The notes under the pieces were generated by a model. That model did no database searches. It worked only from the letters and a program-made list of their open reading frames with translations, and was not told the origin of the DNA. This document shows positions 22,409 to 61,168 of a stretch of DNA of 64,000 nucleotides, one piece after another. The position numbers were made by a program, and so were the translations under genes. Each line of letters starts with the position of its first letter. Positions within the stretch are counted from its first letter, which is position 1. Location of the stretch: the NCBI GenBank assembly GCA_905178155.1, contig CAJINV010000008.1, forward strand, positions 2,170,001 to 2,234,000, in the 5' to 3' direction. This DNA comes from Amoebophrya sp. A120. Taxonomy: Eukaryota; Protista; Dinoflagellata.

Positions 22409-25400
22409 ATGCGCCGCCAGCGGATCGCGATGATCCTGTGCGCGATCCTCGGGGTAGAGGTGTACTACTTTCGCTCTTTCACGAGAAAGAACGACGTAAA
22501 AAATACGGGAAGGGAGGAGCCGGCGCCCGGCGGGGTCGTCGTCTTCGTTTCGGCAACGACAGTCACGATTCAGGCTTCTGATTCGAGCGAGGTGCCTGAA
22601 GCCCAAGGTGTCGCCGTACGAGCGACCAATGGGTACGGGAGTGTCGTCAGCACCTCCCCATACCAGCCGGGACTGCATTTCGGGAGCCCCTTTGTGTACC
22701 CCGACGGGGTAACCTCTTTCAGTCACAGTCGTATCTGGACCACGTCTATTCCAATTTCGAAGACCCAAGACCCGAATTTCGGGACAGCGAGGGCGGCGCT
22801 GCTCGAACTTAACATTCGAGGCGAGCAGCCGTGGGCGCAGCGCTGGCATAAGGATTCAAAACAATTCGGCCGGGTCAGTTTGTGGGACAGCCTATATTGT
22901 TTCGGCAGATTGTTCGCTTTATCCGGGACAGGAAGCTGTACTTTTACGACAAACGTAGCCCAGCCTGTGGTTGTTGGGGTAACAGATGACAGGTGTACTC
23001 CCGAGGGTGGCTGCACCAACGTGGATGTGTGTGCGAGTTTTACCATCGCTTCTGCGACCGACATTACGGGCGGACATTCGCGGCCCTCGACGTACGCTGA
23101 TGGCAGTGCACCGCCTGGCGCCAATTGGTGGCGTTTAATGGCAGACTGCTCCGGGAGATCCGGGCGGTCTCTGGTGATCTACCGCCCAGCGAAGGGGGAT
23201 GGGACGCTGCTGCAGATGTATATCCGAACGTTTGAGATGACTGACATAGCGACCAATGACAACTCCCATCAAGACGATAGCGGAAATGTGAAATGGAGAG
23301 TGGAATTTGCCAAACCTGGGGGGACTCTGATGGGACTTCAATTCCACACCCAACATGGCTTTGCCCAAGCCGACTATAACAAGGTGAAGACTACCAGTCT
23401 GAGAATCGAGGCGGGTTCGCTGCTCGTTGATTTTACTGATCTGCAGACACTTATGTAGGCGTCAGGATTGAAATAGACAAAGTGGCCGACGGTCATCCTG
23501 TTTGGGGTCTGCGATAGAGCTGCTATAGTAGCATGACAAAGGACGCCTACCGTCCCTAGACAGCATGACAAACTGGATTTAGATGGGGCGTAAATTTGTC
23601 ACGCACCGCTTGGAAATTGGGCTTCCAAATCCAACTGGTATCGGTTTTATGCCTTCTAAATCACTTCAACTTGTTCGTCGATTTCAGTCCTGACACCCCC
23701 ATAACACCGCTGCCAACGGCCGTGGGAAGTGCGACCGAGGGGTACTCCGTTGGCCTCATGTTCGACCGCCCGATTCCCGTCGCGGACGTATCAAAACGAA
23801 AAAAACCTCCACCCCATATCAAATGCGAAATCTGTGATGCAGGATTTGTGTATACAAATGCGCGCTGTCTTGCAATACGGCATCGCAGCCAGATCCGCAG
23901 CCTACGGAGGGACATTTGGGTCTAGTAGGTGCTTAGCATTGCAAACGGCTGTCCTCCAGGCCCAACAGCATGCCAAATCGCTTCCATAATGGCGCGGAAG
24001 CCTCTGCGTTTGTCTTCTTGCAAGACAGACGTGATCTGTGGTCTCAAATCAGCAAGACAAAGCATGCCTTTTTGATATGGGGAGGGGGGACTTCTCCTCT
24101 CAATAGAACGGAGATTTTCTTCACCTGGGCAACCTGGGAAATGCTCTGGTTGCGGTGGAGGCTCGTATGTGTGTGGACCACTACGCATTTGAAAACGCCC
24201 AGTTCGAATTTGTTATGCAGGAAATGCTACTTCTGTGTTTGTGTAAGTACGTTTGTGTAGAAGTTCTCGCGGACGATGCGACACTTGTCATGTTGGATGT
24301 GCGTCATGTTGTACTTGTAGCCTAGTTTTCCTTTTCCCGTGCTACTTGCTGCGCGAGACAGGTCTCTACTGATGCAAAGCGAATTTGATGAAGATGTGAC
24401 GTTGCTGTCCATCCTGATGATCCTGCTGAGTTACACTATGCACAGTTTATTTTTCCTCGGATAGAAAACGGGACTTCCCTAGTGGCGGCCGGTGGCGGGT
24501 CGGCTTCCGCTTACTGCACGGAGGAGCTCGGCAAGGCTTTTTCGGGGTCCAATTGGATTTCGTGGCTAAACCCAAATGGGTATCAAAAGGAAAAATTCCC
24601 CCTCCCTATATCAAAAAGGCACTTCTCAGAAAATTTGCAATGTTGATTTGTGATCCCAAATCTTTTTTGTCTTGCAAGAAGGGAGCTCTACGGTCTCCGC
24701 CGCATTATGCGGACGGTTTGTGATGCTGCTTGGGCTACAGCATAGACATTTGTGATGCTAAGCGTCCACGTCAGAAGCTCTTTACTCAGGCGCGGCATGT
24801 GCCTGCAATGCTCTACTGCAAGACAGCTCTGATTTGTGTACGGAAATCCAGCGCCAGAAGCTTCGTTTTGATGTGGGGAGGGGGGATTTTTCTTCTTGAT
24901 AATGGCGAGGCCCTCCACGGATCGGGCGCGGTCCCGCCCCAGGACTGGACCTGGAATGAGTATACCCTGCTCAGCTGTTACAATTTCAAACGTTACAATA
25001 GAGTACGGAAATCTGTGATGCAAGAGTGCATGTTCTAGCTCACTCTCATAGGATTGCGCATGACAAATTCCGGAGTCCCAAACCCCACTACAATCTGGCG
25101 AAATTTGTATTGCAGAAAGTGGAACCTTCTGCGAGTCTGTCATGCTCACCGTGCAGCACAAGTTTCAAATTCTATTGTAACGTTTGAGATTGTAACATCT
25201 GAGCAAACCATAACGAGTGTGCGCAGTTTTGCGCCCAGGAGCCTCTCTGTGCCGGAGTCGAGTACTGGACGGACGCATGCACGTATTCGCCAGCTCGCGG
25301 ACACTGCAGACCCGTCGGCACGGCCAGCTCGCGCGAAACCGCGAAGTGGTGGAAACGGGCCACGGTGGCCCTCGTGATGACGGACGCGTGCCGTATGGCG

Positions 25401-28400
25401 ATGCTGAAGGAAGTGGAAACGCATCTTCACCACCGCCCCAGGCGTGTTCCCGCCCTGCCTCTGATCCGCGTGCCTATATCCGATTTAGATATGCTTTACT
25501 CCTCATGCCTCGGCGATAACTGCAACCCGACGGCAGCGCTCAAACGGCCGGCTAACGACGCGAGTGCTGGAACCGAGTCAAGCCCATATGTTACGCATAC
25601 AGGAAACCATACAGAATTGGGCACTTCCGCTGATTGGATCGAGGTGCGCTTCAAGGATCGCGTGCCTCGCAAGGTCGCGGGTGTGGTCCTTTTCAAGCGC
25701 AACAGAGCAAACCAAGAGCACGACGTAAAACTTCAAGAAATCGGGCAAATTTTTTTGAACGGTTCCCCCACCGCTTTCAAGAACACGCCGAGTTTGGTCG
25801 ACTTTACAGGGACCTGGATTTCTATCGACCAGGAGGCGTGGTCGATACGGCTTCAGTATGCTTGGTTAGTGATCGTCGCTGGGTGGTGGGTGTTTGATAT
25901 CCTGTGCAAAAGTATCGTACAACTCGTATTGCAAACATGCATTGCAAATCGTTTTCTTAAGGTAAATCAGCATAGCATTACATTTCTCCTACCGAGGAAA
26001 TTTGTAATGCATTTACTTAATTAGCGGCCCTTTCATAAGTCCGGACATTTCACTCCTTGTCACATACCCAACGCTAAAGAAAAAAAAACGAATTTTGAAT
26101 AAGTCGGAACGTGTCCAGGAGCTGCGTCTGCAGCTACTCGCTCTTGTACAGCAGGCGCGCTCCCTTTTTTAGTTCCGTACAACAAGAAAAGAAGCAAGAG
26201 GCCTGTTTACAAGGAGCCTGCGCTTTATCAATGGCGTAGGCTTCTGAAGCAGCTTGCGCAGGGAAATAACGCGACGGAAGAAGTAGAAACAGCCAGCCGA
26301 AGAAAGTTCTCGACAGCTCGGAAACTTTAGTCCCCGTCGGCTGCCACCCAATGCAGTGCGCCGGGCGGCTTTGGTGTTTGTGTTTCCGTATAATAAACCA
26401 CGCAAGTGTGTTGCGCATTTGCGACGCCTGTTCCTTTGTCCATCGGCGCCGCATCTGCAACACCTTGCACAGTGTAGGCATCAGGAATACACAAACACGC
26501 CAAGAAAACAGGAACACTGATAGTCCGCACATTGCTACAGGTTGCGACTGTGCAGGCGCGCGCAGTGTAGTAAGTAAGCGGGCAGTTCTCGTTCTGGACC
26601 TGGAAGATGCGCCACGCTGCGCTGTACTGTCCGAGAGACCAACCATGCTCTCTTTGCAGTAATTACGTGCTTCATGTTTTTTTTGGTTAGACCTGTGTAT
26701 TGAGTCAGCACGAGAGAGTTCTATTTGCTGTCCTAGTTCCGCCGAGCTAATTCGGCAATTCTGACGTTTTTTTATGGGCGGCGAGGTAAAAACGCGTACT
26801 CAGGTCGGCGGGTTTAGGACTCTATTTCTCGATGACAGAACTTTTGCTCAAAAACAGCACACCAAACGCCGATGCTGTGGTCCATTTTTCTGTATCTTTG
26901 TAAGTCCAAACAGCGCGCCTTGTCCCCATGCTATGGTGGACATTCCGTGCTTTTTAAGGTGAAAACTTTAAGGAAAACGTCTGCAAAAATCTGGAACTTT
27001 ACTATACCAATCTCCAAGTTTTAAACCAGTACAGCGACTCCCAAGTTCTAAAGTAATTAAGTTTTATAGTTTTTTCGAAATTCTTAATGATCTCCAATTT
27101 CTCATAGCTTAACCAATGGTCCCCAAGTCTCCCAGGTCTGTTGTCTGCTGAAAAACGGTTCTATCCTACGCGAAACGCAAACACACTATTTTACGACCGA
27201 GGTTGGTGTTGCGGTGGCGTGACACCAGTCTTGAGTCTGCGTGGAGAGGCAGATAGACGCCTTCTCGCGCAATAGCTCAAAGTCAAAAAGTCAAAGACTC
27301 AGTACTTACTCAGTTGAGCGCTTCGGAGTGCTATGCGGGGACGGCTGCTCTGCGGGGGGACTGCTGGATGGAAGCTTAGGAGAAAAATTTGCGCGGGGAG
27401 TATTGGGGCATGAATTTCGAGTAAGCAGCCCTCTGAAACGCACCAAAGCAGTGCGCGCGTATTTAGACCCAGAAAATAGGTGGGCAAGCGGCGTAGATAG
27501 GTTGCAATGCTCGGGGGCTGACGGGATATACGGGCACTGTAAGCAAAATAAAAAAAGCCCGGGTAGGAAAAATGCACTTTGCGTTTTTTCCTACCCGGGG
27601 TTTTTATTTTCAAAGCCCCGGGTAGAAAATATTTATCCGCTGCTCTGCACGTCTGTGAGGGTGATGACATGTGATAGATATTTCCTACCCGGGGTTTTGA
27701 AAATAAAAACCCCGGGTAGGAAAAAGTTGAAAACTCATATTTCCTACCCGGGCTTTTTATTTTCAAAACCTCGTAACGCCCCTCCGAAATCTGGGCGGCG
27801 CGGCAGTGCCGCGAGAAATTTTTTTTCGGATCGCGGAGAGCTATGTGAGGTTTGGAAAACCAAAACCGCGTATAGCCCCCTCGAAATTTGGGTGGCGCGG
27901 CAGCGCCGCGAAGAATTTTTTTGGTTCGCGGACGGCTGTGTGAGGTTTTCAAAGCGAAAACCTCGTATAGCCTCCTCGAAATCTGAGCGGCGCGGCAGCG
28001 CCGCGAAGAATTTTTTTTTGGTCCGCGGATAGCTATGTGAGGTTTTGAAAGTCAAAATCTCGTATAGGCCCCTCGAAATTTGGGCGGCGTAGCAGCGCCG
28101 CGAAAAGTATATTTCCTACCCGGGCTTTATATTTTCAAAACCTCGTATAGCCCCTCCGAAATCTGGGCGGCGCGGCAGCGCCGCGAGTGTTTTTTTTGGT
28201 TCGCGGATGGCTATGCGCGGATGGCTATGTGAGGTTTTGAAACCCAAAACCTCGCATAGCCCACCCAAAACTTGGGCGGCGCGGCAGCGCCGTGAAGAAA
28301 TTTTTTTGGTTCGCGGAGGGCTATGTGGGGTTTTGGAAGCCAAAACCTTGGATAGCCCCCTCAAAATTTGGGCGGCGCGGCAGCGCCGCGAAGAAGTTTT

Positions 28401-31400
28401 TTGATTTTGCAACGCGGAGGGCTATAATGTCAGGTTCCGAAAACCTAAACCCCACTTAGGCCTCAGGGGGTCGCATCGGGTAAGTCGCGCCAACGCGCGG
28501 GCGCAGGGGCTGCAGCGCTGCATTTGGTTTCTACCGTCAGTGGTGTGGGCCAGAATGTGAAAAGTCAATTGACCTATGACCTTTATGAAAGGGCCGCTAA
28601 TTACGTCATGCAGGTATACGAGTAGGTGTAGGAGTGCGGTACTTATGCAGTTTATACTTGAGGACGCGAAGTACCCCAGCAGCGTCGCGGCCTGGAACCG
28701 CGACACAGAGACACTGCGAGTTCCCGAGTCGCTTTTGCGCGCGTCACAATCCAGTATCCGCTCATCAACCTATCCAACATATAGCGCGAACAAACCGCTG
28801 CAGTACGTGATGGGAACAGCTACAGAGTGGTTCGGTGGCTACTGTGCGTACACGGATGACACTGGTAGTGACAGCCTGAACTGGTGGCGCGTCGAGTTTG
28901 CGGATCAGAAGAGGCATCACGTCTCCCTCCTTCATCTCTTCAACCGTGATGCGGACGCGCAACGCCAGATGCGGCTGAACAAAGGCACCGTTTGGCTGGA
29001 TCCCCCTATCACAGTAGACGAAGACGATCTTCCAGCGCAGGCAACCGCAATCGGCCAGGAGCTGTTCGCGCTCTTGACGGGAGGAAACCTGACCGCTGGA
29101 ACCGACTATATCCAGCTCGGAACCATAGCTGGCGGCGCGAGCGGGGGCACGCAGATTCCGCTGAACGTGGGCGGGTTGCTCGCGGCAACGCATATCCACT
29201 GCAAATATGTGTGGGTCTGGAAAGGTGCAAACTTGTGATGCTCCCTGACTGGTGTCAGACGCACAAAAATCTGTCATGCGTGAGCAGCAGTCTGTGTCTG
29301 TTTACTTACTTATGTCATCCGTGAGCAGCCGAAGCTCCTATTTTTCGCCACGCTGAGAGAGGATTTCTCATGTGGAGTAGGCATTGTGTTTGTGAAGCTC
29401 TTGGAAATAACCTGTGAAGGTAGACTCTGCATTGCGAACCTTCTTGTCAGTCTATGCAAAACCTGCACGTGAAACGCTGCACTTTTCAAGACCCAGACAT
29501 ATTTTCAATGCACAACTCAGCCTGTGCGACGAATCTATGTCTTGGCGCCGCTCGATCGTAGTAGCTCCAACGGGGCTATCGAGTGCACATATGCCTGGGT
29601 CTGAGAGATTGCAAACTTGTGATGCGTCCTGTGGGTCACACAAAAACCTGTCTTACATGATTAAGTGCCAAAAGATGCCCGCTACGACCAAATTTAGAGG
29701 TTTCTATCAAAGACAGAAACGTCACAGAATCTGTCATGCAGCTAGGTCCTGCACTCCAGACGCAGACCTCCTGGGGCATGGACAAGCTGCGTGACAATTC
29801 TCCACATGTAGTGATTGGGGCATGGAGAACCTGCACGACAAGTCTTCACATCTCCGTGTCGTCACATGTGGTTCTTGAGCTTGGTTTGCGTGTGTCAGAG
29901 GTTTGCTGTTGGTTAACACACCAGAATTTAAAGTGCACCCCTGGGCGTCTGAACGTTTGGACCAAACGAGTAAACGTCTGGAAAGATCTCTAAACCTCTC
30001 GGCTTCCTTTGCATACAAAAGTGAAGACGGTGGAAGGGTTGGGTTGGGGGTCTAGGGTTTGGGGTTTCTGGTCGTTGGCCAGGGCAGCCGCCGCGGCCGG
30101 CCGGCCGGCGGCGGCTGCCCTTGCCGGCGATTCTCTTCCGTGTTGCGTTTGCGCCGCTGCCCCGCCCCCCGCCCTCGGCCGGCCGGCCGGCGGCGGCTGC
30201 CCTTGCCGGCGATTCTCTTCCGTGTTGCGTTTGCGCCGCTGCCCCGCCCCCCGCCCTCGGCCGGCCGGCCGGCGGCGGCTGCCCTTGCCGGCGATTCTCT
30301 TCCGTGTTGCGTTTGCGCCGCTGCCCCGCCCCCCGCCCTCGGCCGGCCGGCCGGCGGCGGCTGCCCTGGTCGGCGACCCTCTTCTTTGTTGTGTTTGCGC
30401 CGCTGCTCCGCCCCTTGCCCGCCGTTCTATTGCCTCCCCTCTGCGGTTTTCCTTGCTTATCACCGCCGCGATTCTTCTCCCCTGTGCCTCCTTTTGGTTG
30501 CTTCGTTATCGCCACCATCGAGATTCTTCGTTCTCCCTGTCAGCCAGTCTCCGACAACAAGAAACGACAGACGGGCTGCAATCTCAGCGAAGCTCGCGAC
30601 GTCACGTCGATAGTTCGGGCCCGCGGGCGATCGTTTGGACGCGTGATCGTGTGGCCCGGAAAGTTTAGACGAAAAAGTTTGGGTTCTGTCCTTTGCTGTT
30701 TATGGCCTTTCCCGGCCTCTCCCATGGGTAAATAATGGAAATGGTGAACCGCGATGACTGCCGCCGGGGACATTCATACGGTGTCAGCCGGATGGCTGTG
30801 GTCTGGCTCGTACTGCGAACGCAGCCGAGTGGCCCTTACCGGGCTCGCCTTTGATGGGCAGGCGGATGATTGTGACCGGTCTCGGCCATCAACATCCCTC
30901 AGCCGTAGCGCCTGGGCGTTGTATGGTCCGCAAATGGCGCCAGGGGGGGAAGCCGGGCGGCTGTGGCGTGCTCGGGCGGGGGCGCCCCGCTCCGTTTTCT
31001 CGGTCGGCTGAAAAATAACTAAGATTCCCGGCGCTTCAAAAATTCCCCGGCGCCGATCTGCCTTTCCGTCGGTCCCGGGGGTTTTGGTGGGTGCCCTGCC
31101 CGGTGTCGCCTCGGTCTCGCCGTGTTTTGGCAATTTTGGCGTCCACCACTTTCCCTCGGTTCCGGGCACCGAATGTATTCTCGGTGGGCCCCACCCTGCC
31201 GCCTGATGGGCCGCCAAAGAAATTGAAGATTTAATAATTCGGGCAGTTTTTGATTTTATCTCGGGCGCCCAAAGGTTGCGGCCGCGCTCCCCGAATCCGG
31301 TCGCAGTCATGTGGGTGCTCTTCGCGTCGTCTTTTGGGTTGGGGCGCGTCCTGTCCCCGGGGTGTTTCGCATGTGTGGTCCCCGATGTTGGTGCATGTTG

Positions 31401-49400: not shown

Positions 49401-52400
49401 AGAGGGCATGGAGGTGCTTGCCATACTGTGCGGGCAAATGCTTACGCAGCCAGCTCGCGACGGACCTCGGGCGCTGATGGACAGGCTCAAGGCAAAAGCC
49501 GAGCGCCATCGTCGGGATATCGCCACGAACATCGTCGACCGCCTGGCCGACGGCCGGGGGGGTTCGTTTCTATTGGACTTCGTCGGGCAGCTGGTACGGA
49601 GATGGTTCCTGTTTGTTCAAGAATCAGCCTGCCCGGAGACGCTGGGGAGTTCCTGTCTTTTCACGAAGTAGCTCCCAGACGATGCATAGGGCGGGCCACT
49701 TTTTGACTTTTCATTCATTGCAGTGAGTAGGTATGTAGCCCGCGCGCGTCGTTTCTTGATATTCTGAGGAAAGGGAACAGGTGTTGGCTGTCCAGCAGGC
49801 CCCTTGGCATTCCTTCCAGCAGCCACCCAGAATGAAGCATCGAGCGTGGTTGGAAAGACGACCAAGGCGGAAAGACCAGCGAGCGGCTTTCTGCAGATGT
49901 GTCGCAGCGAGGGTCTCGGTGTCCTGGGGAAAAACGCCCCCGCCCCAGAATCAATCCGCTCGCTGCGAGGGGGTCCGCGGCGCCAGTGGCGCTGGGGTGA
50001 TAGTTGTGCCGACTACGTGACGATGATGATGGTGATGCGTGAAGGTTTGTAGTCCGCATCCCAGGACGAGCACGAAGCGCGCCTCGTCGCGTTTCGGCCC
50101 CTATAGTGCTGTAATAAACAGGGGAAGAGGTGGATGGCTTTGGTGTGCGGCTGTCCTTGCGAACCAGCAGGCACAGCACTGACTTACTTTTCTCCGCGGG
50201 GCAGCTGAGTGGGGCAGCGGGGTTCCTGGGCCATGAGCTAGCAAGCGGGGGCGTGCTACGATCGGCTCTGCCACCGTTTGCCATTGCCATCAGATCGACC
50301 ACCTTTGCAGGGAATCGCAAATGAGGGAGTCCTGCGGTCGGCTCGTTCCTCTTTGGGCCTCCCGCCGGCGAAATGCAAGAACAGGAGCCCTCCTGTCGGC
50401 TCTTCTTAGTATTGCAGTTCCCGCGCGCGTATTTGTGAGCATGTCCTTGTCTGGAAGATCGACTGGTTGGGGTTTGAGCTTGCTCTGCAGCGCGTCCTTC
50501 CATGTCGGCGCACGAAGCGACGTCGTATGTAGTGAGGTCGCGCGCGTTGGTTCTGTCCTGGCGCTTTTTTTGCCCGTCAGACAGCAAAACGGCCGGCAGT
50601 TATCAAGCGGCCGGAAGTGTTTTTTGACATAAAAGGTCACCAATTATCAAGCCGCCGGGGCTTTGCCATCAAACAAGCACGGGCCAACTCTATCGATTAC
50701 CGCTTGACAAAACGACGCAAGGGAGCCGGCAAGCAAGGGGGCCGGCAAAAGGGGGGCCCCTCTGAGGCGCCCACCGCCTTGGTTTCTGGTGGCTTGGGGC
50801 GCTCAAAAAGGGGCGCCGACAAAAGTCCAATAATACAACAACCGCGAACCCGCATGCTATTGGCACCATTTTGGCCCACTTTTCGAGGTCGCAAAGCCGG
50901 CCACCAAAGTCGGGCATCTGTAAGGCGGGGAGCGGGCCAAACGCTGCGACTTTTCAACAAAAAAAACCAAAAAACGCGAACGCCGCCAAAAGCCGAAAGC
51001 CAATCCGCATGTTGTGGCCCCCTTTAGGGGGCCAATAGTGCCGGCCCCGGCGGAGGCCCTAGGGCGGCCATAGCGTGTGGGAAAGCGTTGCTTCTCTGGA
51101 GGCAGCAGGGGCGCGGCTTTTCCACAAAAAAAACCAACAAACGCAAATGCCGCCAAAAGCAGCAGGCTTTCAATCCGCCTGCTAGGGGCCCGATTTGGGG
51201 CGCCCAAGGGGCCGACCCTGGCGGGGACCCGAGCGGGGCCACGGCATGCGGGGAAGGCCTTCGGGCTTTGCAGACAGGAAGCGGGCGACTTGTAGCCGTG
51301 ATATCTACCGCCCCCGACACCATGCGGGGCAACGCTTTGGAGGGCGGCAGTAAAAAAAGCCACTGCGGCCTTACTATCTACCCCCGCGGGCGCGGCTATT
51401 ATTGGTGTCTATTATCTATGGCCCTCAGTCGCACTCGCAGCGCGTCGCGCGGAATCCCCTTGATGCATATAGTCCCGCGCCGATTTCTTTTCCCTCGTGC
51501 CGATTTCTCTTCCCTGGCTGCGCGTCAAAAAATGGCTGCGCTGCGCAAGCTTTCAGCTGCCAGACATATTTGTAGTGGTGGTCGGGGATGTTGGTGGAGC
51601 TCCACCGCCAAAGTTTTCAGGAGGCAGGAAAGCGCGCGGAGGAGTATCCGATCCATCTACCAGGTCGCCGGGCTACGTACGTTGGTGTGGGCGCCGATTT
51701 CAGCTGCAGCGGCACCATAGTGCTACGTAGCGCATACCCACCGAACTCAACCTCGAGAGTATTTGGCTCTGTTGTTGGTTTCTCGTGCGCCAGGGCCTCC
51801 CTTCTGTCGTAGTATAGAAATCAATGCGGGAGTATACGTGGCCCGCTCGGCTTTGTTTTTCTTTTTGTGCCGAGTTCGGGCGCTGCAGGTTACTTCCACA
51901 GCGGGAGTGGGTTCCGCGGAAGGTAGTAGCTAGACCACCTGACTTATCTAGTTAGCCCAGCCCTTAAGGCAGAACGAAGACGGGGAGCAGCGCGGGCGTT
52001 TGCTATCCATTCGAGTGCGTAGCTAGCATGGCGCTCCAGCGACTTTGAGGACTTTGGCGCAATATAATTCAATGCACTTACTGACGTCACAGGTTGCGCC
52101 CGAGCTCGGCGCGCTATCGCTCTGCGACTTGCAATACGGTGGGCCGGCGATTGGCGTCATGGATGCGCGCGCGCAAGAAGGCCTCGGTGGCCGCGGCGTT
52201 AAGCACATAACGCGCTATGTGGGCAAGCGGGCATTTGGGCAGTGGGCGGGGCTGCCATCTTATCTTGGCTAAAAACGTACCCACCCCAGCCGCGGCATCA
52301 CAATCATGCAGAGGAAGTGCCAAGTGAAGGCCCAGACACCTGGCGCGGGCCTGTCCGAGAGAGACACAATTCCCGCTCTCGTTTTTGTATGTGTGCGTGT

Positions 52401-55400
52401 AGTTGTAGAAACCCTTACTCTTTTAAGCGCCAGCATTGTCATCAGCACAGGCGGATGGGTATGGGCTCGCGATCTGGATGCATGCAGGCTCACTTGTCAT
52501 GCAGATATCTGAGCTACGAAATGAGGTGGCTAGGTTTTTGTTTAAGATTGATACGTGCTCCACGCATGACATGGGACAGTGAGCAACGCGATTGGGTTTG
52601 GATGGTTGCGAGCAATTTGGCGACAGCGACAGCGCGATCTGCAAACGTGATTCCGCAAACTTGATTTCAAATCTAAACGTGATCCCATAAACGTGATCCG
52701 ACGATAAACGTGATTCCATTAACTTGATTCCAAACGCAAACGTGATTTCAGATTTTGGCTAACTTGATATGGGAGATTTCCGAACACAAGTGCACGCATA
52801 CCGATGTTTCTGCTGCCTCGTGTGGCAACGAGGCGGCCGGGTTTAACTGGTGGCGGTAGGCACAGAAAAGGACCCATCCCCATCCAATTTGTGATTGCAA
52901 AGCATGCATATTCCATTAAATCCTGTGTCTGTGATGCAAAAAATGGATGGGGATCGTGGATTTTGTTCTGTGGATAGGGATGTCGGATTTCCTGGAGGGC
53001 GCCGGCAGTACGTCAGTCGCCTTCGTCTTTTCAACCGCGGTGGTGATGCAACTTTATTCAAGCGGCTGAACAACGGGACCGTGTGGCTGGATCCGCCCAT
53101 TACCGTGGACGAAGAAGATCCGAGCAACTACGGCGACATCGGCAGAGAGCTGTGGGCCCTGCTGGACGGCGGAACGCTGGTCGCGGGGAAAGACTATGTC
53201 CAGTTCGGGACTGTGGCCACTGGGGAGGAGGGCGGCACTTCGATCTTCCTGGACGGCGCGGGCATCGCGACAAAGCAGCCAGTGCGCCGCCTCTATGTGG
53301 CCGCACCGTTTGACCGTGTCCCCACTCCCGGTTCCGCTTACTCTTGCAATAACGATCCAATCCACATTTGTGGAGCCCTGCTGTACGCTCCTGCGTGGAG
53401 CCTGGATGAGTCGACAAGCTATCTACAGCACGCCTGGCACCTCCCGCCCCAGTCGTTCCGCCTTGTCCCGCGGACGATGCTCGAGGCCTCGGCTTCGTCC
53501 CTATTGAATCCCGGGGATGCCAGCGAACGTAGTCCTCTGAATCGAAAGCTGGGCCACGTGGATAGTTGCCAAGGATCCTTAGTCACGGCCACTACCAGTC
53601 TGGGGCAGTGGTGGGAAGTGAGCTTCAAGGACGGGCAACCCCGGCCCATCATGGGCTTCGTTGCGTTCAAGCAGACCCAGAGCAACTACGATAACAACAT
53701 TGACGACGCGCCGATCTACCTCAATGGCACACTAAGAAGTGCCATTCGCAATATGCCCACCCTGCCTCATTGGAACGCCCGAGGTGTTCCAGACTTCCAC
53801 GACGCGGGCACGTGGGTGTCCATTGGCCAGGACGCTTCAAAAATTCGCATATCCGACCCGGCTACCGCGAGGGCTAGCGGACTGAACGGCATCACGCTCT
53901 GTGGGTTTTGGTTGTTCCAAAGCTGTGTGGGGGCAACGTCTTCGGACGCCAACAACTATCGGCTCGAGAGACTAGCAGACCAGGGCGACCCGGCGGTGCG
54001 TCAGAGTTTTGCCTGCACAGAAGAACTCGGGCGGGCTTTCTCAGAGTATGACTACCTACCAGGGGTGAATGGGGAGGACGGAACTCTACCGGGGAACTGG
54101 CCCTGGAGGGAGTGCGTCCAGTGGTGCGCGCAGGAGCCGAAGTGCGGGGGCGTCGACTACGAGTTGGATGGCTGCTCCTACTCCCCAGCTCGCGGAATGT
54201 GCCGTCCCCGTAGAAGCGCCAGCACGCGCGCAGCGCTGGATCCCACCGCGGATGTCGCGCGGGACGCACGGGTTGCCCTGGTCATGACGGACGGCTGCCG
54301 TAGGAGTCTCATGCCCGCACGTCCGCTCCGCTTCGTCAGTAAGACCGACTTGACCACGTTTTTGCTGAACAATAAAGGTGGCTATCACCTTACCAGCACA
54401 CCCCGCATCGACCGCTCTGCCAACGCGGAGTACGGCTCGTGCGCGGCGGCCAGTTCGGGCCTGTATGACGCTTCGGGCCCAGACAACCCCGACTACTCCT
54501 CGCGGGGCTTCTGCAATCGATACAGCCACGGAGAAACCAGCACCGATATCCTGCAGCTCGAGGTGCAGTCCACGGACACCGCGGGCAACGATGTCAGTGG
54601 TATGTACGTCGCGGGGGTGGTATCAACTGCAAATATGTCTTGCTCGTCTAGAAGGGTTGAACTTGTGATGCTGTCTTTGGATGCTAAACCTTAGAAATTA
54701 ATGTTGCATGATCAGCAAGAGGAGACCAGTACTAGTTTGTTCCACGCGGAGAGGCCGTTTGTCATGCGGAATAGGCAGCAGAAAGTCCGGAAAAATTATC
54801 TGTGAAGATGCTGGCTCATGCATTACAGGCATCATGGTTGATGCAGAATATGTATGACAAACGCAAACCTGGCAATCTCCCAGACCCAGACATATTAATT
54901 TGCAATGCATAGTTGGTCCTGCAGATGCGGGCGGGGGACACCAACAGGGGAGTGTCGCGCGTGTACGTGCAGTACCTACCAAAGGGCAATCCGCAAATGG
55001 GCGTCTATGTCCCGGGATGCACGCGCAGCGATCCGAGGGGCTCGGCCGTGTGTTTGCACGGCTGGCGGGAGGTGGACAAAGGCGCCTTCCTGGAAACCGG
55101 GATGGACTGCCGCTCCGGAGAGGAGCAGTCGGCCCGTGTCCTCTACTTCGGGGAGCCCGTGTTGGCCAGCTCGATTCGGATCATTGGGAAGAGCCCGGGC
55201 CTGTCACCCTGCGACACCGCAAATGTCGCCTACCGCGCGGAGCTGATTCTTCGCGCCCACGACGGCGTGCGGCAGGTGGGGCGGCGCTTGGAAGCGGGAG
55301 ACGGAAACCTGAAGATACCGGGGGACTTGTCCGTCTTCCCACCTGACTACGACGCTTGTCTGCAGTGGTGCGTGGACCATCCGACCTGCGTGGCGATCTC

Positions 55401-58400
55401 GTTTTACGAACATTACAAGTGTCAGCCCTTCAAGGCTCTGGGGAAGTACCAGGGGCTGGAGACACGTTTCAGCAGCGTAGTCACCTTCGTCTCGCACAAG
55501 TATCGGGTCAAGGAGCACGGCATGCGGCTCTTCTACAATCTGGGGACTCCAGGGTACCCCATGTGCCCTCCGGAGCTGCTATCCCACAGAGAGCTAGAAT
55601 ATTATCTCACATTTGTTCGTAAAAATAAATGTGAACTCACAGTTGTAGTTGAAAAATTTCCCATAGGGTATCCGTGTGTTTGCTGCTGCATATCCAAATA
55701 GTATGCTAGTGTGCTAGCTCCTTTCTGTGCGATAGCCGCTTGGTTTGCCAATAGCGGACGAGGATCATTGCGAAGAAGCGATACATATCCTCACAAAAAA
55801 CGTCCCCACCGAGATTTGTATCAGTAGCTGGAACACCTACACCAACACTTGTAATGCGCATCCCCATGAGAGGGAGAGGGAGAGGTATCTCTCTGGTCGT
55901 GCTTCGTTTGGCATTCTTTGTAATCGCTGTTGTAACTAAAACTACAGGAACAGGATAAGCAGTGACCCGCACCTTGCTGTCCGTGCTAACCTGCACTACG
56001 ATGCTCACAGATAGAAACTGTTGATGCGTCACTTCCAACACTTCTGGCTCTGTGTTGCGAAATTCCTATCGTGACTATGTCGAGGGGGCGGCTTTCCACA
56101 GGATAGTACACTTTATCCAATACCTCCGGGTGGAGCAGCGGAAAGGTCAAGCCCGTCGCTATCAACAGGAAAAATCCGCCCTCCCCATATCAAAGTGGCA
56201 ATGAATCTGTGTTGCGGGATTTGTCTACACAAATCAGCTTTGTCTTTCAGTAGAGGACTGCAGGCAGATGCAGAGCCTAGAAGGGGCAGGCTAGACGTGG
56301 GCGCTCAGCTGCATGGCAGACGTCTCGTCTGCCCTGTAGTTGGCGCAAAAGCATTACCAATCGCCTGCGTCAAGCGGCCGACGCTCTGGCTTTGCTCTCC
56401 TGCAAGACAAACCAACCTGACTTGTGGCCACAAATCAGCATCACAAATTTTCAAAAGGATGCCTGTTCGATATGGGGAGGGGGGATTTTTCCTCACAATA
56501 GTCGCTCCGATGTGCTGGGTCACTTCGCTTACCAGCAGCCGCTCTCTTCCAACCCGGAAGGACCGGGGCCCAGCGCCTCGTGCAGGGACGCAGCAGGGGG
56601 CTGGAGTGAAGTTCCGTTCGGTTGCAGCGTGTCCAGAAAACCAGTGAATGTCGGGCGGCCACACTTCCGGGGTGGCACCCACACGGGCGGCGCACCCACT
56701 AATGAGATGTTTCTGGATCCGCGCTTATCAAAATGAAAAATCCCCCCTCCCCATACTAAAACGGAGACTTGTGTAGCATGATTGGTGACCACAAATCATG
56801 TCGTCACGCTAGAAGGCAAAAGATGCGGACTGTTGTGCTGGCTGGCGTGGGAACGCCTTGCATCTTCAGCATAAAAACAGGAGGCACCTGGAAGTGGGAA
56901 ACAGCATGACAAACTGCCTGCAATTCAGGCCGCAACTGCGTCTCGTGGCCTTCTAGGAATACAAGTCGATTTGTATCCGCAAATCCAGCATCAGAAATTT
57001 CCTTTCCGATATGGGGAGGGGGGATTTTTCCTCGCAATAGCGCTGCCACCGCCTGCCTTATCAGGTGCTGTGTGTAAAGCGCGTGTACGTTGATTACTCC
57101 CTGTACCGAGTGCGAACCCTATCAAAAGGAAAAATGCCCCTACCCCATATTGAAACGGCGATTTGTGTAGGATGATTTGTGACAACAAGTCATGTTGTCA
57201 TGCTAGAAGGCAAAAGAAGCGGACTGCAGTGCTGGGTGGCGTAGGGAAGCTTTGCGTCCTCAGCATGACACCAGGAAGCAACTGGAATAAATGGGAAACA
57301 GCTTGACAAACCGCCTGCAATTAAGGCCGCACCTGCGTCTCTTGGCCTTCTAGCAATACAAGCCGTACGCAAATGCAGCATCTAAGGACTGACCCCTAGC
57401 AATACAAGCCGTATTGGTTGAGGACTGACCCCTTCGTTCTAAGTGCCGTCAGCCATGGTATCCGCAAATGCAGCATCACAAACGTCTTTTTCAATATGGG
57501 TCGGGGGAAAAATTTTTCTTCGCAATAAACCAAAATAACCGGGGAGCCCGTCCGTTGTTACCGTGGTGCGGAGCGTGAGCAGCGCATCAGCAAGATTGAG
57601 TGCAAGGAGGTCGGCTTGGGCATGGCGTTGACGGCGCCTCTATTCTTGCCGTACTTGCGCGACCCATACCAAGGCGACCCACACGGTCTCGGTGGGCGAG
57701 AGCATTTTAAATGGGGAGCTGCAATGGAAGAGGGGGACTCAACTTCTGCCGGTTGCCAAACCGGGAGCTCAGGATGGTGCAGTGTCCCCGCCGGATGCTC
57801 ATTGTCGGACACCAGTGGCCACGTCCACTGGAACAGTGCTAAGTTCGACGAGGCCTGTTGTGCAGTGGGGTACAATTTGATTTGCGGCACTCGGCAAACA
57901 CCACCGCTGCCCTATCAAGAGGAAAAATTCCCCCTCCCCATATCGAAACGAAGTTTCTGATGCTGGATTTCCGTACACAAATCAGATTTGTCCTGCAGTA
58001 GAGGACTGCGGGCATATGTCAAGCCTCGGTCGAGAGGTTTTGACGTAGGCGCCTAGCATGGCAAACGTGTATGCTCTAAGCCCAACAGCATCACAAACCG
58101 CCTGCAAAATGCAGGGGGCTCTCTGGACTTGCCTTCTTGCAAGACAGACAAGATTTGAGGTCACAAATGTGCATCACAAATTTTCAGACGGATGCGTTTT
58201 CAATATGGGGAGGGGGAATTTTTCTTTACGATATGCCCCCGCCCCGGCGGATCCATCCCAAGTTCGAGCGCGATCGATTGTTTTTTACCCGCACCTATCA
58301 AATGTAAAAATGTCTGGGTCTGGAAAGATGCAACTTGTGATGCTGCATTTGGATTCCAGAAAAATCTGTATTGCAGGAGTACCAAAAGGAATGTAATTTT

Positions 58401-60068
58401 TGCTACGCGGAGAGAGCATTTGTCATGGGGAATAGGCATCAATAAGCTTTCAAAAAATCTGTGATGCTAGGGCATGCATCACAGACATCAGGGCTCATGC
58501 AAAACATGCATGACAAGTGTCAAGATCTTCCAGACCCAGACATTTTTACAGTTGATAGCACCGAGGATGTCACGGACCCCACCCGGATTGCCGCGCAACC
58601 CTTTCGTATCCACGACTACCCGGCCATGAAGTGGTGGCACCAGGTGGAGGGCCACCCCCTGGAGCTGCGCGTGGACCTGGACTGGGAGGACCACGGGTAC
58701 GGAAAAAGGGCTGCGGGGATTCTTATCAAGTTGTTCTGCTCTCCCTTTGCGACGCTGATGGCCGAGCGATGGATCAAGCAGGTTCCGCGCAAACGAAAAA
58801 CGGAGACGCTGCTCTTCTATCGCGACGTGGACGACATCGTTGCGTTCGCCTATTCCGTACGCATTGCAAAATAAAATGTCTGCTGGAAGGTCTGGAAGTA
58901 GCTTGTATATGCTATGTATAGAAGTGTCGACGCCCGCGACATGAAAATGAAATGATACGTCGCCAAGCATGAAAATTTTCGTCGAGGTTCTGGCCCTAGT
59001 AGATCAATGTCCTGCAGCATTCGAAGCTGCTTGCGGCGGCAGTGCAAATAAGAGTTCTTCGTTCAGATAATGCGTAAAAGCTGGCACGACGAGAGTCGCC
59101 ATCGTGAAGGGTGCGCCTGATATCACCTGACTATGTGGCACTTCTGATGCTGATCAGCTTTGTGCATCACAGGTTTACTTATTTGGTGTTATTCAAAATC
59201 GAAATGCGAATGCGCCATGCAGCGAGACTCTTTCAGTTTCACCAACCTGACGATATCTCCCTACTCTCCCAACCAGACCAGCCAGACGTGATATTTGCAT
59301 TCGATATCCCTACTCCAACGACAATATCAAATGTAAAAATGTCTGGGTCTGGAAGATTGCGAGATTTGTCATGCATATTTCGGATCACGCAAATGGCGTC
59401 TGATGCAGGCAAAAGCATCACAGGTTTTGAGCACGCCTCATGATGCCTCTCCCGCATGAGAAACTTCTTACTTGCGTGCCAAGAAATGGACAGCCTTTGG
59501 CGCTCATGCAACACAAATTTTTGTGTGTTCCAGAGTTTGCATCACAAGTTCCAACCCTTCCAGACCCAGACACTTGTACATTTGATAGACAAGGAGATGC
59601 GCACGTGCTGGTACGAGTTTTACGCCAAAGTCGGAGACAAACCGGGGCAGATATTAAAGTGAAAAATGCCCCCCACCCCTGAACTTGCAAAAATTTGTGA
59701 TGCGAAGTTTCCAAATGAAAACTTTTTGCCATGCATGAAAGGAGTATGGATCTTTCTGATGCAGAGTCTAGGCGAGGCGTGTATCGCATCGCTTGCATGA
59801 CAAGCGCCGCTCTTGCTGGGGTCTCTTGCAATACAAATTTCCGCTATTCACGATTGGAAACCTGTGATGCTGATAGATGCAAGAGGGCGAATGTTTCATT
59901 TGGAAAGGTTTGCAATACAAATGCTCCCAAGTTCGTGGGTGGGGGCATTTTTCATTGTAATAGCAGAAGTTGTTGCTTCATCATTTCTGGGTGACTGTCC
60001 GGTACTATCCTACGCAACACCTGATCACCCCCCTGGTCATTTGTCATGGACCAAAAAAAAGTAGCTAG
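22409..60068 (+). CDS. Giant 22-exon gene, about 2181 aa, putative secreted or membrane-anchored adhesin with F-type-lectin/galactose-binding-like and PAN/apple-like repeats
   Basis: Exons (left TSD kept): 22409-23451, 23709-23788, 24111-24195, 24469-24580, 24907-24960, 25218-25897, 28662-29192, 29520-29576, 44678-44902, 52775-52856, 52982-54620, 54917-55579, 55740-55785, 56111-56159, 56506-56725, 57045-57119, 57533-57912, 58239-58295, 58563-58857, 59312-59324, 59593-59651, 59968-60068. Total 6546 nt, in frame, ending in TAG. Hydrophobic N-terminal stretch IAMILCAILGVEVYYF; motifs CTHTD..NWWRV.F..LFNR and ECVQWCAQEPKCGGVDY. Start uncertain (upstream in-frame ATG at 22172). Confidence 0.8.
23452..23703. 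mobile_element. Introner, family E
   Basis: TIR TATGTAGGCGTCAGGATTGAAATAGAC / GTCGATTTCAGTCCTGACACCCCCATA; TSD ACACT/ACACC; removal fuses ORF 21977 to ORF 23596. Confidence 0.85.
23789..24105. mobile_element. Introner family A, reverse orientation
   Basis: TATCAAAACGAAAAAAACCTCCACCCCATAT / ATATGGGGAGGGGGGACTTCTCCTCTCAATA; TSD GGACG/GAACG. An in-frame GT-AG alternative (23788-24106) also exists. Confidence 0.85.
24196..24463. other. Probable old introner-derived intron with decayed left TIR
   Basis: Right end ...TTTTCCTCGGATA; direct repeat GAAAA(CG) at 24191 and 24464; removal keeps the frame (HYAFENGTSLV). Confidence 0.5.
24581..24901. mobile_element. Introner family A, forward orientation
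   Basis: TATCAAAAGGAAAAATTCCCCCTCCCTATAT / ATGTGGGGAGGGGGGATTTTTCTTCTTGATA; TSD ATGGG/ATGGC; spliced LNPNGEAL aligns with uninterrupted PGVNGEDG near 54060. Confidence 0.9.
24961..25212. mobile_element. Introner family C
   Basis: TIR core TGCTCAGCTGTTACAATTTCAAACGTTACAATAGA / TCTATTGTAACGTTTGAGATTGTAACATCTGAGCA; TSD ATGAG/ACGAG; spliced WTWNECAQFCAQEP matches WPWRECVQWCAQEP near 54100. Confidence 0.9.
26018..28603. mobile_element. Nested non-autonomous TIR element with internal palindromic and tandem repeats
   Basis: 21-bp inverted repeat TAATTAGCGGCCCTTTCATAA / TTATGAAAGGGCCGCTAATTA; no convincing ORF. Confidence 0.7.
27550..28425. repeat. CCTACCCGGG/CCCGGGTAGG inverted repeats followed by an about 90-bp tandem array
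   Basis: Recurring units CCCTCGAAATTTGGGCGGCGCGGCAGCGCCGCGAAG...GCTATGTGAGGTTTT. Confidence 0.85.
29193..29514. mobile_element. Introner family B (right end ACA)
   Basis: TATCCACTGCAAATATGTGTGGGTCTGGAA / TTCAAGACCCAGACATATTTTCAATGCACA; TSD ACGCA/ACTCA; spliced LAATQPVRRIYV matches IATKQPVRRLYV near 53270. Confidence 0.9.
30080..30425. repeat. 82-bp GC-rich tandem repeat, about 4 copies
   Basis: CCCTTGCCGGCGATTCTCTTCCGTGTTGCG at 30118, 30200 and 30282, plus a diverged fourth copy. Confidence 0.9.
32371..33593. mobile_element. hAT-like non-autonomous element, copy 1 (in copia-2 gag)
   Basis: Ends CAGTCAGA / TCTAACTG; 8-bp TSD ATCCAGTT/ATCCACTT; homologous to 37348-40288; contains the N gap. 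Confidence 0.75.
32848..33174. other. Assembly gap
   Basis: Run of N. Confidence 1.
37348..40288. mobile_element. hAT-like non-autonomous element, copy 2 (in copia-2 RT)
   Basis: Ends CAGTCAGA / TCTGACTG; 8-bp TSD TCGTGCCT/ACGTGCCG; RT sequence resumes after it. Confidence 0.75.
37579..39289. mobile_element. TIR element with subterminal GGAATCAG arrays, nested in hAT-like copy 2
   Basis: Left GGTAAGAGAGGGAATCAGACT with (GAATCA)n; right (TGATTCC)n with AGTCTGATACCATCGACGACC. Absent at the equivalent site of copy 1 (about 32600). Apparent 4-bp TSD ATTT/AATT. Confidence 0.75.
40854..41892. mobile_element. TIR element inserted in copia-2 RNase H
   Basis: TIR TCAGGCGGACGGCCCGGGGCGGG / CCCGCCCCGGGTCGTCCGCCTGA; flanking direct repeat GGTTTCG; internal ATTTATCCC repeats. 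Confidence 0.8.
43386..44016 (-). mobile_element. Solo LTR related to copia-2, inverted
   Basis: Reverse complement begins TGTTGGTCATG and carries four copies of the LTR hairpin motif; TSD AATAG/AAGAG. Confidence 0.8.
45124..45250. mobile_element. Orphan left end of a family B element
   Basis: TATCCACTGCAAAGATGTCTGGTTCTGGA; no partner right end found. Confidence 0.6.
45252..45600 (+). mobile_element. Second copy (left part) of the GGAATCAG-array element
   Basis: GGTAAGAGAGGGAATCAGAC... collinear with 37579-37950. Confidence 0.7.
50690..51030 (+). repeat. Dispersed GC-rich repeat, copy 2 (related to 2170-2520)
   Basis: Collinear shared blocks with 2170-2520. Confidence 0.7.
52857..52976. 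mobile_element. Short (120 bp) degenerate introner
   Basis: Inverted repeat CACAGAAAAGGACCCATCCCCATCCA / TGGATGGGGATCGTGGATTTTGTTCTGTG; TSD decayed; removal gives NWW(R/D)VGF, like NWWRVEF. An in-frame GT-AG alternative (52856-52977) exists. Confidence 0.7.
54621..54911. mobile_element. Introner family B
   Basis: TATCAACTGCAAATATGTCT / CCAGACCCAGACATATTAATTTGCAATGCATA; TSD GGTGG/GTTGG; fuses ORF 52895 to ORF 54913 (YVAGVVLQMRAG). Confidence 0.85.
55580..55734. mobile_element. Short introner, family D
   Basis: TATCCCACAGAGAGCTAG / CTAGCTCCTTTCTGTGCGATA; TSD GCTGC/GCCGC; frame restored. Confidence 0.8.
55786..56105. mobile_element. Diverged family-A-like introner (320 bp)
   Basis: TATCCTCACAAAAAACGTCCCCACCGAGAT / ATGTCGAGGGGGCGGCTTTCCACAGGATA; TSD ATACA/GTACA; join CEEAIHFIQYL. 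Confidence 0.75.
56160..56500. mobile_element. Introner family A, reverse orientation
   Basis: Family A TIRs; perfect TSD GTCGC; frame restored. Confidence 0.92.
56726..57039. mobile_element. Introner family A, forward orientation
   Basis: Family A TIRs; perfect TSD GCGCT; frame restored. Confidence 0.92.
57120..57527. mobile_element. Introner family A, forward orientation, with internal duplication
   Basis: Family A TIRs; TSD AACCC/AACCA; duplicated CTAGCAATACAAGCCGTA and AGGACTGACCC blocks. Confidence 0.88.
57913..58233. mobile_element. Introner family A, reverse orientation
   Basis: Perfect TSD TGCCC; reverse complement of the 5641 copy along its whole length. Confidence 0.93.
58296..58557. 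mobile_element. Introner family B
   Basis: TATCAAATGTAAAAATGTCTGGGTCTGGAA / TTCCAGACCCAGACATTTTTACAGTTGATA; perfect TSD GCACC. Confidence 0.93.
58858..59306. mobile_element. Diverged introner family B
   Basis: TACGCATTGCAAAATAAAATGTCTG..GGTCTGGAAG / CCAGACCAGCCAGACGTGATATTTGCATTCGATA; TSD TTCCG/TCCCT; frame restored. Confidence 0.7.
59325..59587. mobile_element. Introner family B
   Basis: Family B TIRs; perfect TSD GACAA. Confidence 0.93.
59652..59962. mobile_element. Introner, family A variant
   Basis: TATTAAAGTGAAAAATGCCCCCCACCCCTGAAC / GTTCGTGGGTGGGGGCATTTTTCATTGTAATA; perfect TSD GCAGA. Confidence 0.9.
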
Positions 60069-61168
60069 CACAGGTCCGCCAAGAGGTAGCTCTCGCTCTG
60101 TAGGCGTCATGTTCATTTTGGACGATGGCAAAGAAATCAAACTGAAACTCGCGTACAATTGATGACGTTTTGCTGAGCGCGGGTGGCCGAAAATATACGC
60201 TGCCGGCCCATTTTTCACCACCCCCTGCCAGGCGGCTAAAAAGGGAACTCCCGGATTCGCGCTGAAGGGAGCGAACAGGAGCAAGATCATCGGGATAGGA
60301 TCCTGGTTCCGGCTGAATTTGTTACCCTGCTCGGTGTTAAGTTTCACCTATGTCGTGACAGCATGATGACGAATGATCAATATGAATTCATGTGCAAGCA
60401 GAGCGTGCAGACACTTGTCTCTCTCATGCGAAGAACGCTGCGTGAGCGTGTCGTCTTTTACTGCTGCTCAGATCAACATGATACATACCATACAAAGAAA
60501 AGGGTGGGGGCAGGTGTTGCGCAGGATAAGCACGAACCATCCGACCCGCGGACGCTAGCGACGTTGAGAAAGCGGGCCACGAATAAAGAGCCGGCGCATT
60601 TGGAATTGTAAAGACCGCAGCGAGAAGGAGAAAAAGAAACTACACTGGCAGCATGTGCGACGCGGCTATCGTTAACAAGCAACAAATTTGCGTTCCGTAC
60701 TACTCACGACCATACTTCTGATTGATAGATTTGTTCGTCAATGTGGTGTCTACAAAAATGGAAGTGCAATGTTGATACAACGTCCCTATCTGGAAATAGC
60801 GCTAAATGGCGCTGACTGTGGACTCACTTCGGTGTCCAAGGCACTTGCTCCGCTTCTTTTGTACAAACGAAAAAGGTAGCTGATAAAGAAGGAAAACAGA
60901 GTGCAAAGGAGAGGCTGGCTCCTACTTTACTATTATTGCCGGCCAAAGGAATGATTTGACAATCTGGAGCAAGAGCCGTGTCAAAAATGAAAGTGAGACG
61001 AAAGAGATTTGACGACGATGAGGAGCGAGGGAAGCTGCTTCTGGTAATCTTGTTAATCCTTGAATATCAATGGATACAACTCGATGCACATAGATAGCTC
61101 CTGGCGTTGGGGTGGCAAGCACATCGTCGCCTAAAAGCAGCCTGCTGACAGCAGTAGGAACTAAAACT

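Follow-up and report, generated by a model that had tools for sequence, protein, structure and literature searches.

Introners of the dinoflagellate Amoebophrya sp. A120, a marine parasite, have been described previously, and more than 60% of the introns of this organism are non-canonical, with support from RNA-seq in general (PMC7789003). The A120 elements have inverted repeats of 8-20 nt that start with TAT and direct repeats of 3-5 nt, given as 5 bp in the legend to Fig. S19, and the small nuclear RNAs U2, U4, U5 and U6, but not U1, were found in this strain (PMC7789003). A total of 58 introner families, and 'tens of introns in a single gene', are reported for A120 in PMC12130899. Here, a stretch of 64,000 nucleotides of the A120 genome (the window; GenBank assembly GCA_905178155.1, contig CAJINV010000008.1, forward-strand positions 2,170,001 to 2,234,000) was examined, with emphasis on a gene on the + strand (22172..60611 in window coordinates, which are used throughout) that is interrupted by 22 elements of this type. 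The introner system is already published, and the locus is an example of it rather than a discovery. However, the proteins deposited for this gene fit only one cutting position, in which every intron starts 1 nt before the TAT of the element and ends 4 nt after its ATA, referred to below as the 1/4 register.

The introns of the host gene can be assigned to the published A120 introners on the basis of the organism, the TAT inverted repeats, the short direct repeats, the multiplicity of families and an origin resembling that of miniature inverted-repeat transposable elements (MITEs) (PMC7789003). A preliminary description of the window, prepared from the letters alone, had cited the Amoebophrya introners as an analogy; these are indeed published, although in the very organism from which the window derives. 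In the available part of PMC7789003 no single register is stated, the border being called 'unknown', as opposed to the fixed 1/4 register found here, and the intron analysis covers 40-1000 nt, whereas at this locus the ends are the same in introns with lengths of 2.8, 7.8 and 15.1 kb. The elements are mostly classed as terminal inverted repeat (TIR) DNA of unknown superfamily in the rows seen of PMC12130899, in keeping with the TIRs observed here; its 21 A120 rows give automated target-site duplication (TSD) lengths of 2-6, mixed 'co-opt both' and 'carry 5'' calls, and no common spacer. An explicit statement of a fixed register was not found in the literature searched, which left out most subscription papers.

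The nonconventional introns of Euglena work in a similar manner, with complementary terminal triplets at fixed spacers, slidable repeats and a MITE-like origin (PMC12501133, PMC11282704). Their code, N3-CAG...CTG-N5, has been proven genetically (PMC12501133), and the excised introns are reported as circles (PMC11282704). They differ in having CAG/CTG with spacers of 3 and 5 nt, as opposed to TAT/ATA with spacers of 1 and 4 nt, and in belonging to an unrelated lineage; position counts for CAG at +4 and CTG at -8 did not recover the Euglena motif, indicating that the present introns work alike without being members of that class. Mass TIR/TSD introns are also present in Fritillaria borealis, the spliceosome of which has adapted to MITE-derived introns (PMC11282704, PMC13326754). 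There, however, AG-AC or AG-AT ends are conserved and U2AF is duplicated, whereas in A120 no terminal dinucleotide is conserved and U1 was not found. The introners of Micromonas and Aureococcus are likewise non-autonomous TIR elements that turn into introns upon insertion (PMC11282704), but these carry GT/GC-AG or co-opt it from the duplication, whereas the A120 elements need no particular target letters. None of the 22 host-gene introns has GT-AG or GC-AG ends in the fitted register, one having AT-AC; of a U2-type donor and acceptor, only T+2 and A+3 are kept.

The host gene comprises 23 exons, with a coding sequence of 6894 nt for 2297 amino acids, and shows no mismatches to three deposited A120 proteins that match it letter for letter, namely P0003 (CAD7957953.1, GSA120T00006200001), P0001 (CAD7957955.1) and P0004 (CAD7957957.1, GSA120T00006198001). 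The largest exon (52985-54619), when used as a query, was 100% identical to P0001 across its whole length. The three public models can be read as one frame, and hence as a single gene that has been split, because one exon of P0003 overlaps with P0001 and a paralogue, P0002, spans the P0001 region through to the end of P0004. Twenty of the 22 junctions are carried by the deposited proteins, each with loss of the element plus 5 nt, junctions 17 and 18 being absent from every deposited model. Removal of the element plus 5 nt yields a single open frame of 2297 codons, whereas among the other lengths tried (0-8 nt) removal of 0, 1, 3, 4, 6 or 7 nt leads to a stop by codon 548, and that of 2 or 8 nt to a stop at codon 2293 or 2251, respectively. 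The claim of the preliminary description that TIR introns without GT-AG are removed precisely is therefore upheld for 20 of the 22 junctions, and the same three proteins support its view that the locus is not a pseudogene. Its gene structure requires revision, since 21 introns, 22 exons and an end at 60068 had been proposed; the stop at 60068 lies within the left arm of element 22 (60006-60528), and the last exon ends with the TAA at 60611, as in P0004 and P0002. Similarly, the exon total of 6546 nt should read 6657 nt (2218 amino acids) if translation starts at the ATG at 22409, or 6894 nt from the deposited start at 22172; by way of reconstruction, the lower figure is reproduced when junctions 3 and 9 are shifted by 18 and 78 nt to repeats of similar appearance.

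The cutting position was defined by k, the number of letters removed before TAT, with 5-k removed after ATA; where the two flanking 5-mers differ, the protein reveals which letters were present in the mRNA. Mismatches to the three deposited proteins for k = 0 to 5 numbered 5, 0, 3, 6, 11 and 14, respectively. Thirteen of the 20 junctions are informative, and k = 1 is their sole common register: junctions 3 and 9 permit only this value, junctions 1, 16 and 19 need k of at least 1, and junction 10 needs k of at most 1. When a random register was assigned to each junction, a common fit of all 20 arose in 83 of 100,000 trials (158 of 200,000 in a second run); omission of junctions 3 and 9 raised this to 1,647 of 100,000 with the answer still k = 1. 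These two junctions were placed from the protein first, the TA at +2 and ATA at -7 being seen afterwards. The paralogue P0002, which is 77% identical over 841 residues across junctions, narrowly favours k = 1 or 2 (647 identities of 841, against 643-645), and six of its seven informative residues match the exonic copy. All four elements of a neighbouring gene, P0010, are compatible with k = 1 and jointly restrict k to 1 or 2, such that the 1/4 register fits all 20 deposited junctions of the host gene together with the four of its neighbour.

Introns 3 (24213..24467, ends TT-AA) and 9 (44980..52773, 7.8 kb, 5' end TAG, ends TT-GG) both lack a direct repeat (0/5 matches) and yet exactly 5 nt are lost at each, indicating that the repeat is unnecessary for removal. 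The rule of 'element plus one TSD' given in the preliminary description thus fails at these junctions, and is better put as a fixed spacer of 1 nt and 4 nt around the terminal motifs. The use of nearby canonical sites, named there as an outcome that would overturn the claim, is contradicted at the two junctions with imperfect repeats that offer it. A GC-AG register at intron 10 (52856..52980; 5' end TAG, repeat 2/5, 5' spacer limited to 0-1 nt) and a GT-AG register at intron 11 (54620..54915, family B) are both excluded by the deposited proteins, the latter because it would turn Val into Leu, contrary to the deposited protein and the paralogue.

The letters at the element ends have been retained to a much greater degree than the repeats. 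Across the 24 junctions that the deposited models cover, T+2, A+3, A-7 and A-5 were changed at 0 of 96 positions, compared with 33 mismatches at 120 repeat positions (Fisher p 5e-10, or 3e-5 when the four junctions with a repeat match of 2/5 or less are left out), which points to purifying selection on the ends. Since the ends are held while the repeats drift, the duplication appears to be a scar as opposed to a signal. The adjacent T+4 and T-6 show 4 changes in 48 positions, with T+4 changed three times and its pairing partner A-7 never. Element 4319-4622 of the neighbouring gene, which is without a predicted stem (z +0.4), still fits the register; together with the one-sided changes this suggests, with small numbers, that letters are read rather than pairing alone. 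The rule also holds across the 15.1 kb of intron 8 and the 7.8 kb of intron 9.

The most likely mechanism to account for these observations is that a relaxed spliceosome, counting from the terminal motifs, splices the RNA at the fixed 1/4 spacer, for which the chances are judged to be about even. Insertion of a TAT...ATA element would duplicate 5 bp, and the spliceosome would probably no longer depend on either a G at +1 or an AG at the 3' end. The TA of the element at +2/+3 would take the place of the TA of a GTA donor, with the invariant A-7 or A-5 as a candidate branch point from which the 3' cut would be counted, and pairing of the inverted termini may draw the two intron ends together. 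As 1 + 4 equals the length of the duplication, the coding sequence would be restored at any target and in either orientation, and target-independent restoration of this kind would explain the mass spread of the elements. The apparent chaos of the published splice dinucleotides would also be explained, because target-site letters occupy positions +1 and -1 to -4. It seems likely that the 1/4 cutting position represents a hidden splicing code. That the 'variable' non-canonical splice sites of A120 all follow a single code that reads N-TA(T)...A(T)A-NNNN, with a ruler tuned to the 5-bp duplication, may just as well prove right as wrong, and the same balance applies to its reach, whereby tens of thousands of sites would be covered and any element so ended, whatever its length and orientation, would provide a ready-made intron that leaves no scar at the site of insertion, wherever this may be.

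The spliceosome normally needs G at +1 and AG, and the lack of AG and of G+1 at most of the introns is one of several points that weigh against spliceosomal removal in a fixed register. Another is that 24 of 26 elements (21 of 22 in the host gene) are predicted to form duplexes of their terminal arms with z < -2, stems being expected by the main, albeit less probable, alternative in which the register is the same but a non-spliceosomal endonuclease and ligase read the terminal stem with 1-nt and 4-nt overhangs, as suspected in Euglena. Symmetric termini, removal in both orientations, the missing AG and G+1, the failure to find U1 in A120 (PMC7789003) and the Euglena precedent of fixed spacers and circles (PMC12501133, PMC11282704) would all be consistent with such a nuclease. 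However, the paired positions are conserved on one side only, the stemless element at 4319-4622 obeys the rule, the terminal stem of intron 3 is lost when folded with its flanks (z -0.66), though it pairs when folded alone, and the letters at +2/+3 equal those of the canonical donor. Further points against a fixed register concern the data themselves: it rests on proteins from transcript-guided gene models, in which synonymous slips are invisible, the models having been built from BLAT-aligned assembled transcripts and protein alignments (PMC7789003); 7 of the 20 junctions are uninformative and the whole basis is one window with 24 junctions; and one residue of the paralogue, at junction 19, favours the intronic copy. 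Published tallies are also at odds with it, in that 8 of the 9 predominant non-canonical motifs in Table S4 have A at -2 (PMC7789003) and the acceptors of family 3 include 1014 ag and 762 ac among 3852 (PMC12130899). In the host gene, A at -2 is present in only 6 of 22 introns in the 1/4 register, fewer than in those tallies. Aligners can slide junctions within perfect repeats, and the excess of A at -2 could stem from such sliding or from mixed strands. Conversely, all 9 of the Table S4 motifs start with N-T, as the register predicts (PMC7789003). The register may already be implicit in the legend to Fig. S23, where the A120 inverted repeats are given as '1-5' nucleotides away from the splice sites; for strain A25, with TTA termini, the legend suggests 1-6 (PMC7789003). 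Family 26 has 20 gt and 10 at among 32, with no ag or ac (PMC12130899).

The excess of A at -2 genome-wide, the protein-level nature of the register evidence and the Fig. 3 legend of PMC7789003, in which the splice sites are termed variable, would also suit an absence of any fixed register, with cutting anywhere in the direct repeat and 1/4 as a product of chance or of the annotation pipeline. This seems unlikely given the random-register null (83/100,000), the lack of a repeat to slide in at junctions 3 and 9, the agreement of the paralogue residues and the fact that the pipeline ignored an available GT-AG at junction 11. Deposition of the locus as three partial models might be taken as a sign of a MITE-riddled pseudogene, or of junctions that are template-switch artefacts of reverse transcriptase. 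This is very improbable in view of the 2297 stop-free codons, the similarity to the paralogue across junctions (77% over 841 residues) and the 1164-codon SNF2 frame that is restored in the same way at a metagenome locus (L003); template switching is further disfavoured because it requires repeats, which are absent at junctions 3 and 9. Excision of internal eliminated sequences in ciliates is TA-bounded and precise, and the TA-bounded termini and precise restoration seen here resemble it. Nonetheless, programmed or somatic excision of the elements from DNA before transcription has, if anything, a still slimmer chance of being correct, since the elements persist in the assembly, the repeat-less junctions are restored exactly, and the cuts fall outside the element ends, asymmetrically, and follow the direction of transcription.

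Spliceosomal or not, the 1/4 rule sharpens the question of how introns that lack GT-AG are excised in Amoebophrya, apparently in the absence of U1, and would make the removal mechanism testable, because the fixed spacer specifies four letters that do not vary and two adenosines as candidate branch points. If true, junctions would be predictable from DNA alone and re-annotation would be possible, as exemplified by one gene that is represented by three public models. The parallel with the fixed-spacer code of Euglena suggests that transposon-tolerant splicing rulers arose twice.

Elements were identified by scanning for TAT...ATA pairs with inverted arms, completed by mapping of the deposited proteins, and intron coordinates are given in the 1/4 register on the + strand. 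The 22 host-gene elements start with TAT (19), TAG (2) or TAC (1) and end with ATA (21) or ACA (1), in agreement with the inverted TAT/ATA termini, a few of them decayed, noted in the preliminary description. The 5-bp direct repeats reported there were confirmed in length (82 of 110 letters match at 5 nt, compared with 23-33% at lengths of 2-4 and 6-9) but not in universality: 6 repeats are perfect, 11 match at 4/5, 2 at 3/5, 1 at 2/5 and 2 at 0/5, giving at least 3/5 in 19 of 22. The six perfect repeats had been listed correctly and, as claimed, offer no GT-AG or GC-AG in any register. Nineteen of the 22 elements are 120-523 nt in length and have the features of MITEs, being short, TIR-bounded and non-coding with a TSD of fixed length. 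Grouping by terminal repeats gave two families with 7 and 6 copies, respectively, and nine elements that are single within this gene, consistent with the at least five TIR families proposed earlier; the score cut-off lay close to the highest values of the shuffle null (99.9% at 25, maximum 29) and the grouping was unchanged at cut-offs of 28 and 32. Comparison of arm-trimmed cores showed family copies in both orientations within the gene (2 versus 4, 4 versus 17, 18 versus 20). No Pfam transposase family was detected in the 32 open reading frames (ORFs) of the window or in 86 of the 118 long ORFs of the metagenome loci, and Rfam gave nothing in the window at the gathering score.

Intron 1 (23451..23707; element 23452-23703, repeats ACACT/ACACC) rules out a cut flush with TAT, as does the family-A intron 16 (57119..57531; AACCC/AACCA). 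Family A is further represented by introns 2 (23788..24109; GGACG/GAACG), 4 (24580..24905), which is in the opposite orientation to 2 and 17, 14 (56159..56504) and 15 (56725..57043), with the perfect repeats GTCGC and GCGCT, and 17 (57912..58237; perfect TGCCC), which is backed by the paralogue only. The flanking repeats are ATGAG/ACGAG at intron 5 (24960..25216), GCTGC/GCCGC at intron 12 (55579..55738), ATACA/GTACA at intron 13 (55785..56109), perfect GCAGA at intron 21 (59651..59966) and GGTAC/AGCAC at intron 22 (60005..60532). Intron 6 (25897..28660) extends to 2.8 kb and contains tandem and inverted repeats, including a tandem array of ~96-nt units at 27545-28451. To family B belong introns 7 (29192..29518; 3' end ACA), 18 (58295..58561; perfect GCACC), which has a strong predicted hairpin (z -9.0), 19 (58857..59310; 5' end TAC, repeat 3/5) and 20 (59324..59591; perfect GACAA), the last in the opposite orientation to 18. 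Introns 19 and 20 are separated by an exon of only 13 nt (59311-59323), which is present in P0004.

Family-B termini also bound intron 8 (29576..44676), in which they surround a broken Copia-like retroelement, with an RVT_2 match at 36978-37379 (E 1.4e-16), and further nested repeats. Its length of 15.1 kb is approximate because an assembly gap of 327 N lies within it (32828-33174). Direct repeats of 616 nt at 31573-32188 and 42594-43172 (90%) enclose the broken Copia-like pol, and a third copy is present in inverted orientation at 43497-43964. Two copies of another element, one of them split by a further insertion, and a tandem array of ~82-nt units (30091-30420) were also observed.

A 23-nt motif of family A matched 119 stretches of a metagenome collection, all 80 of those listed being on contigs with one prefix, and had no matches in viral contigs. 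The shared prefix, together with 92% identity over 3.1 kb between locus L004 and a Copia-like retroelement of the window, indicates that these contigs likely derive from a related organism. The paired elements comprised 107 distinct ones, from which 11 that did not have TA at both ends were excluded; a perfect 5-nt repeat flanks 79 of the remaining 96, compared with no more than 9 for any other length, and the target letters vary. For the 68 of 119 loci with a length of 3 kb or more and at least two elements (overlapping loci being unmerged), removal of 2, 5 or 8 nt with the elements increased the mean longest frame from ~360 to 511-517 codons; this class won at 45 loci, against 5 and 3 for the others and 15 ties, 5 nt being indistinguishable from 2 or 8. 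Removal restored a SNF2-family helicase frame at L003, and the same element family also interrupts ALAD (L057), a glycosyl hydrolase 5 region (L044) and an alpha/beta hydrolase (L076). Four junctions with imperfect repeats in L003, L057 and L076 did not narrow the register to one value. A tblastn search of the loci with the proteins used here gave no hits and no orthologous empty site was found; a match involving L028 consists of two unrelated insertions with similar spacing. Among the loci retrieved, no long element flanked by a matching repeat was found for the 44 listed left ends that had no partner nearby.

The host protein contains repeated PAN/Apple and F5/8-type-C-like modules, with a PAN_1 match at its Pfam cut-off (E 1.8e-4), and is probably lectin-like and either secreted or displayed at the surface. 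A galactose-binding F5/8 domain lies above the Pfam cut-off in a second paralogue, P0005, and the Atlas gave, as a lead only, clusters of fucolectin-like F5/8 type C and PAN proteins (0.90, 152/256 features). The named relatives found were all from A120; a match to P0009 looked like chance and was set aside. Directly after the Met at 22409 there is a hydrophobic stretch that could be a signal anchor.

The neighbouring gene P0010 (3964..6315, + strand, 333 amino acids) has four introner introns in the 1/4 register (4318-4626, 4981-5234, 5640-5964 and 6010-6266) and, in the same transcript, the only canonical GT-AG intron seen (5269-5473), which likewise has TA at +2/+3. Position 4981 was rejected as a canonical donor, an element starting G-TAT being located there. 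A family-A element with the perfect repeat CACGG (63583..63904, no strand assigned) has no GT-AG or GC-AG register on the + strand, as had been stated previously. Further TAT...ATA candidates are found at 1663-1842, 3010-3253, 9191-9444, 9443-9751 and 10519-10924, the third and fourth of which abut or overlap. A Copia-like long terminal repeat retroelement with gag and RVT_2 (E 3.2e-24) occupies 11354-17300 on the - strand, and the region at 17500-18900 is dense in short repeats, among which are a core of inverted repeats (17748-18189) and a tandem array rich in G+C.

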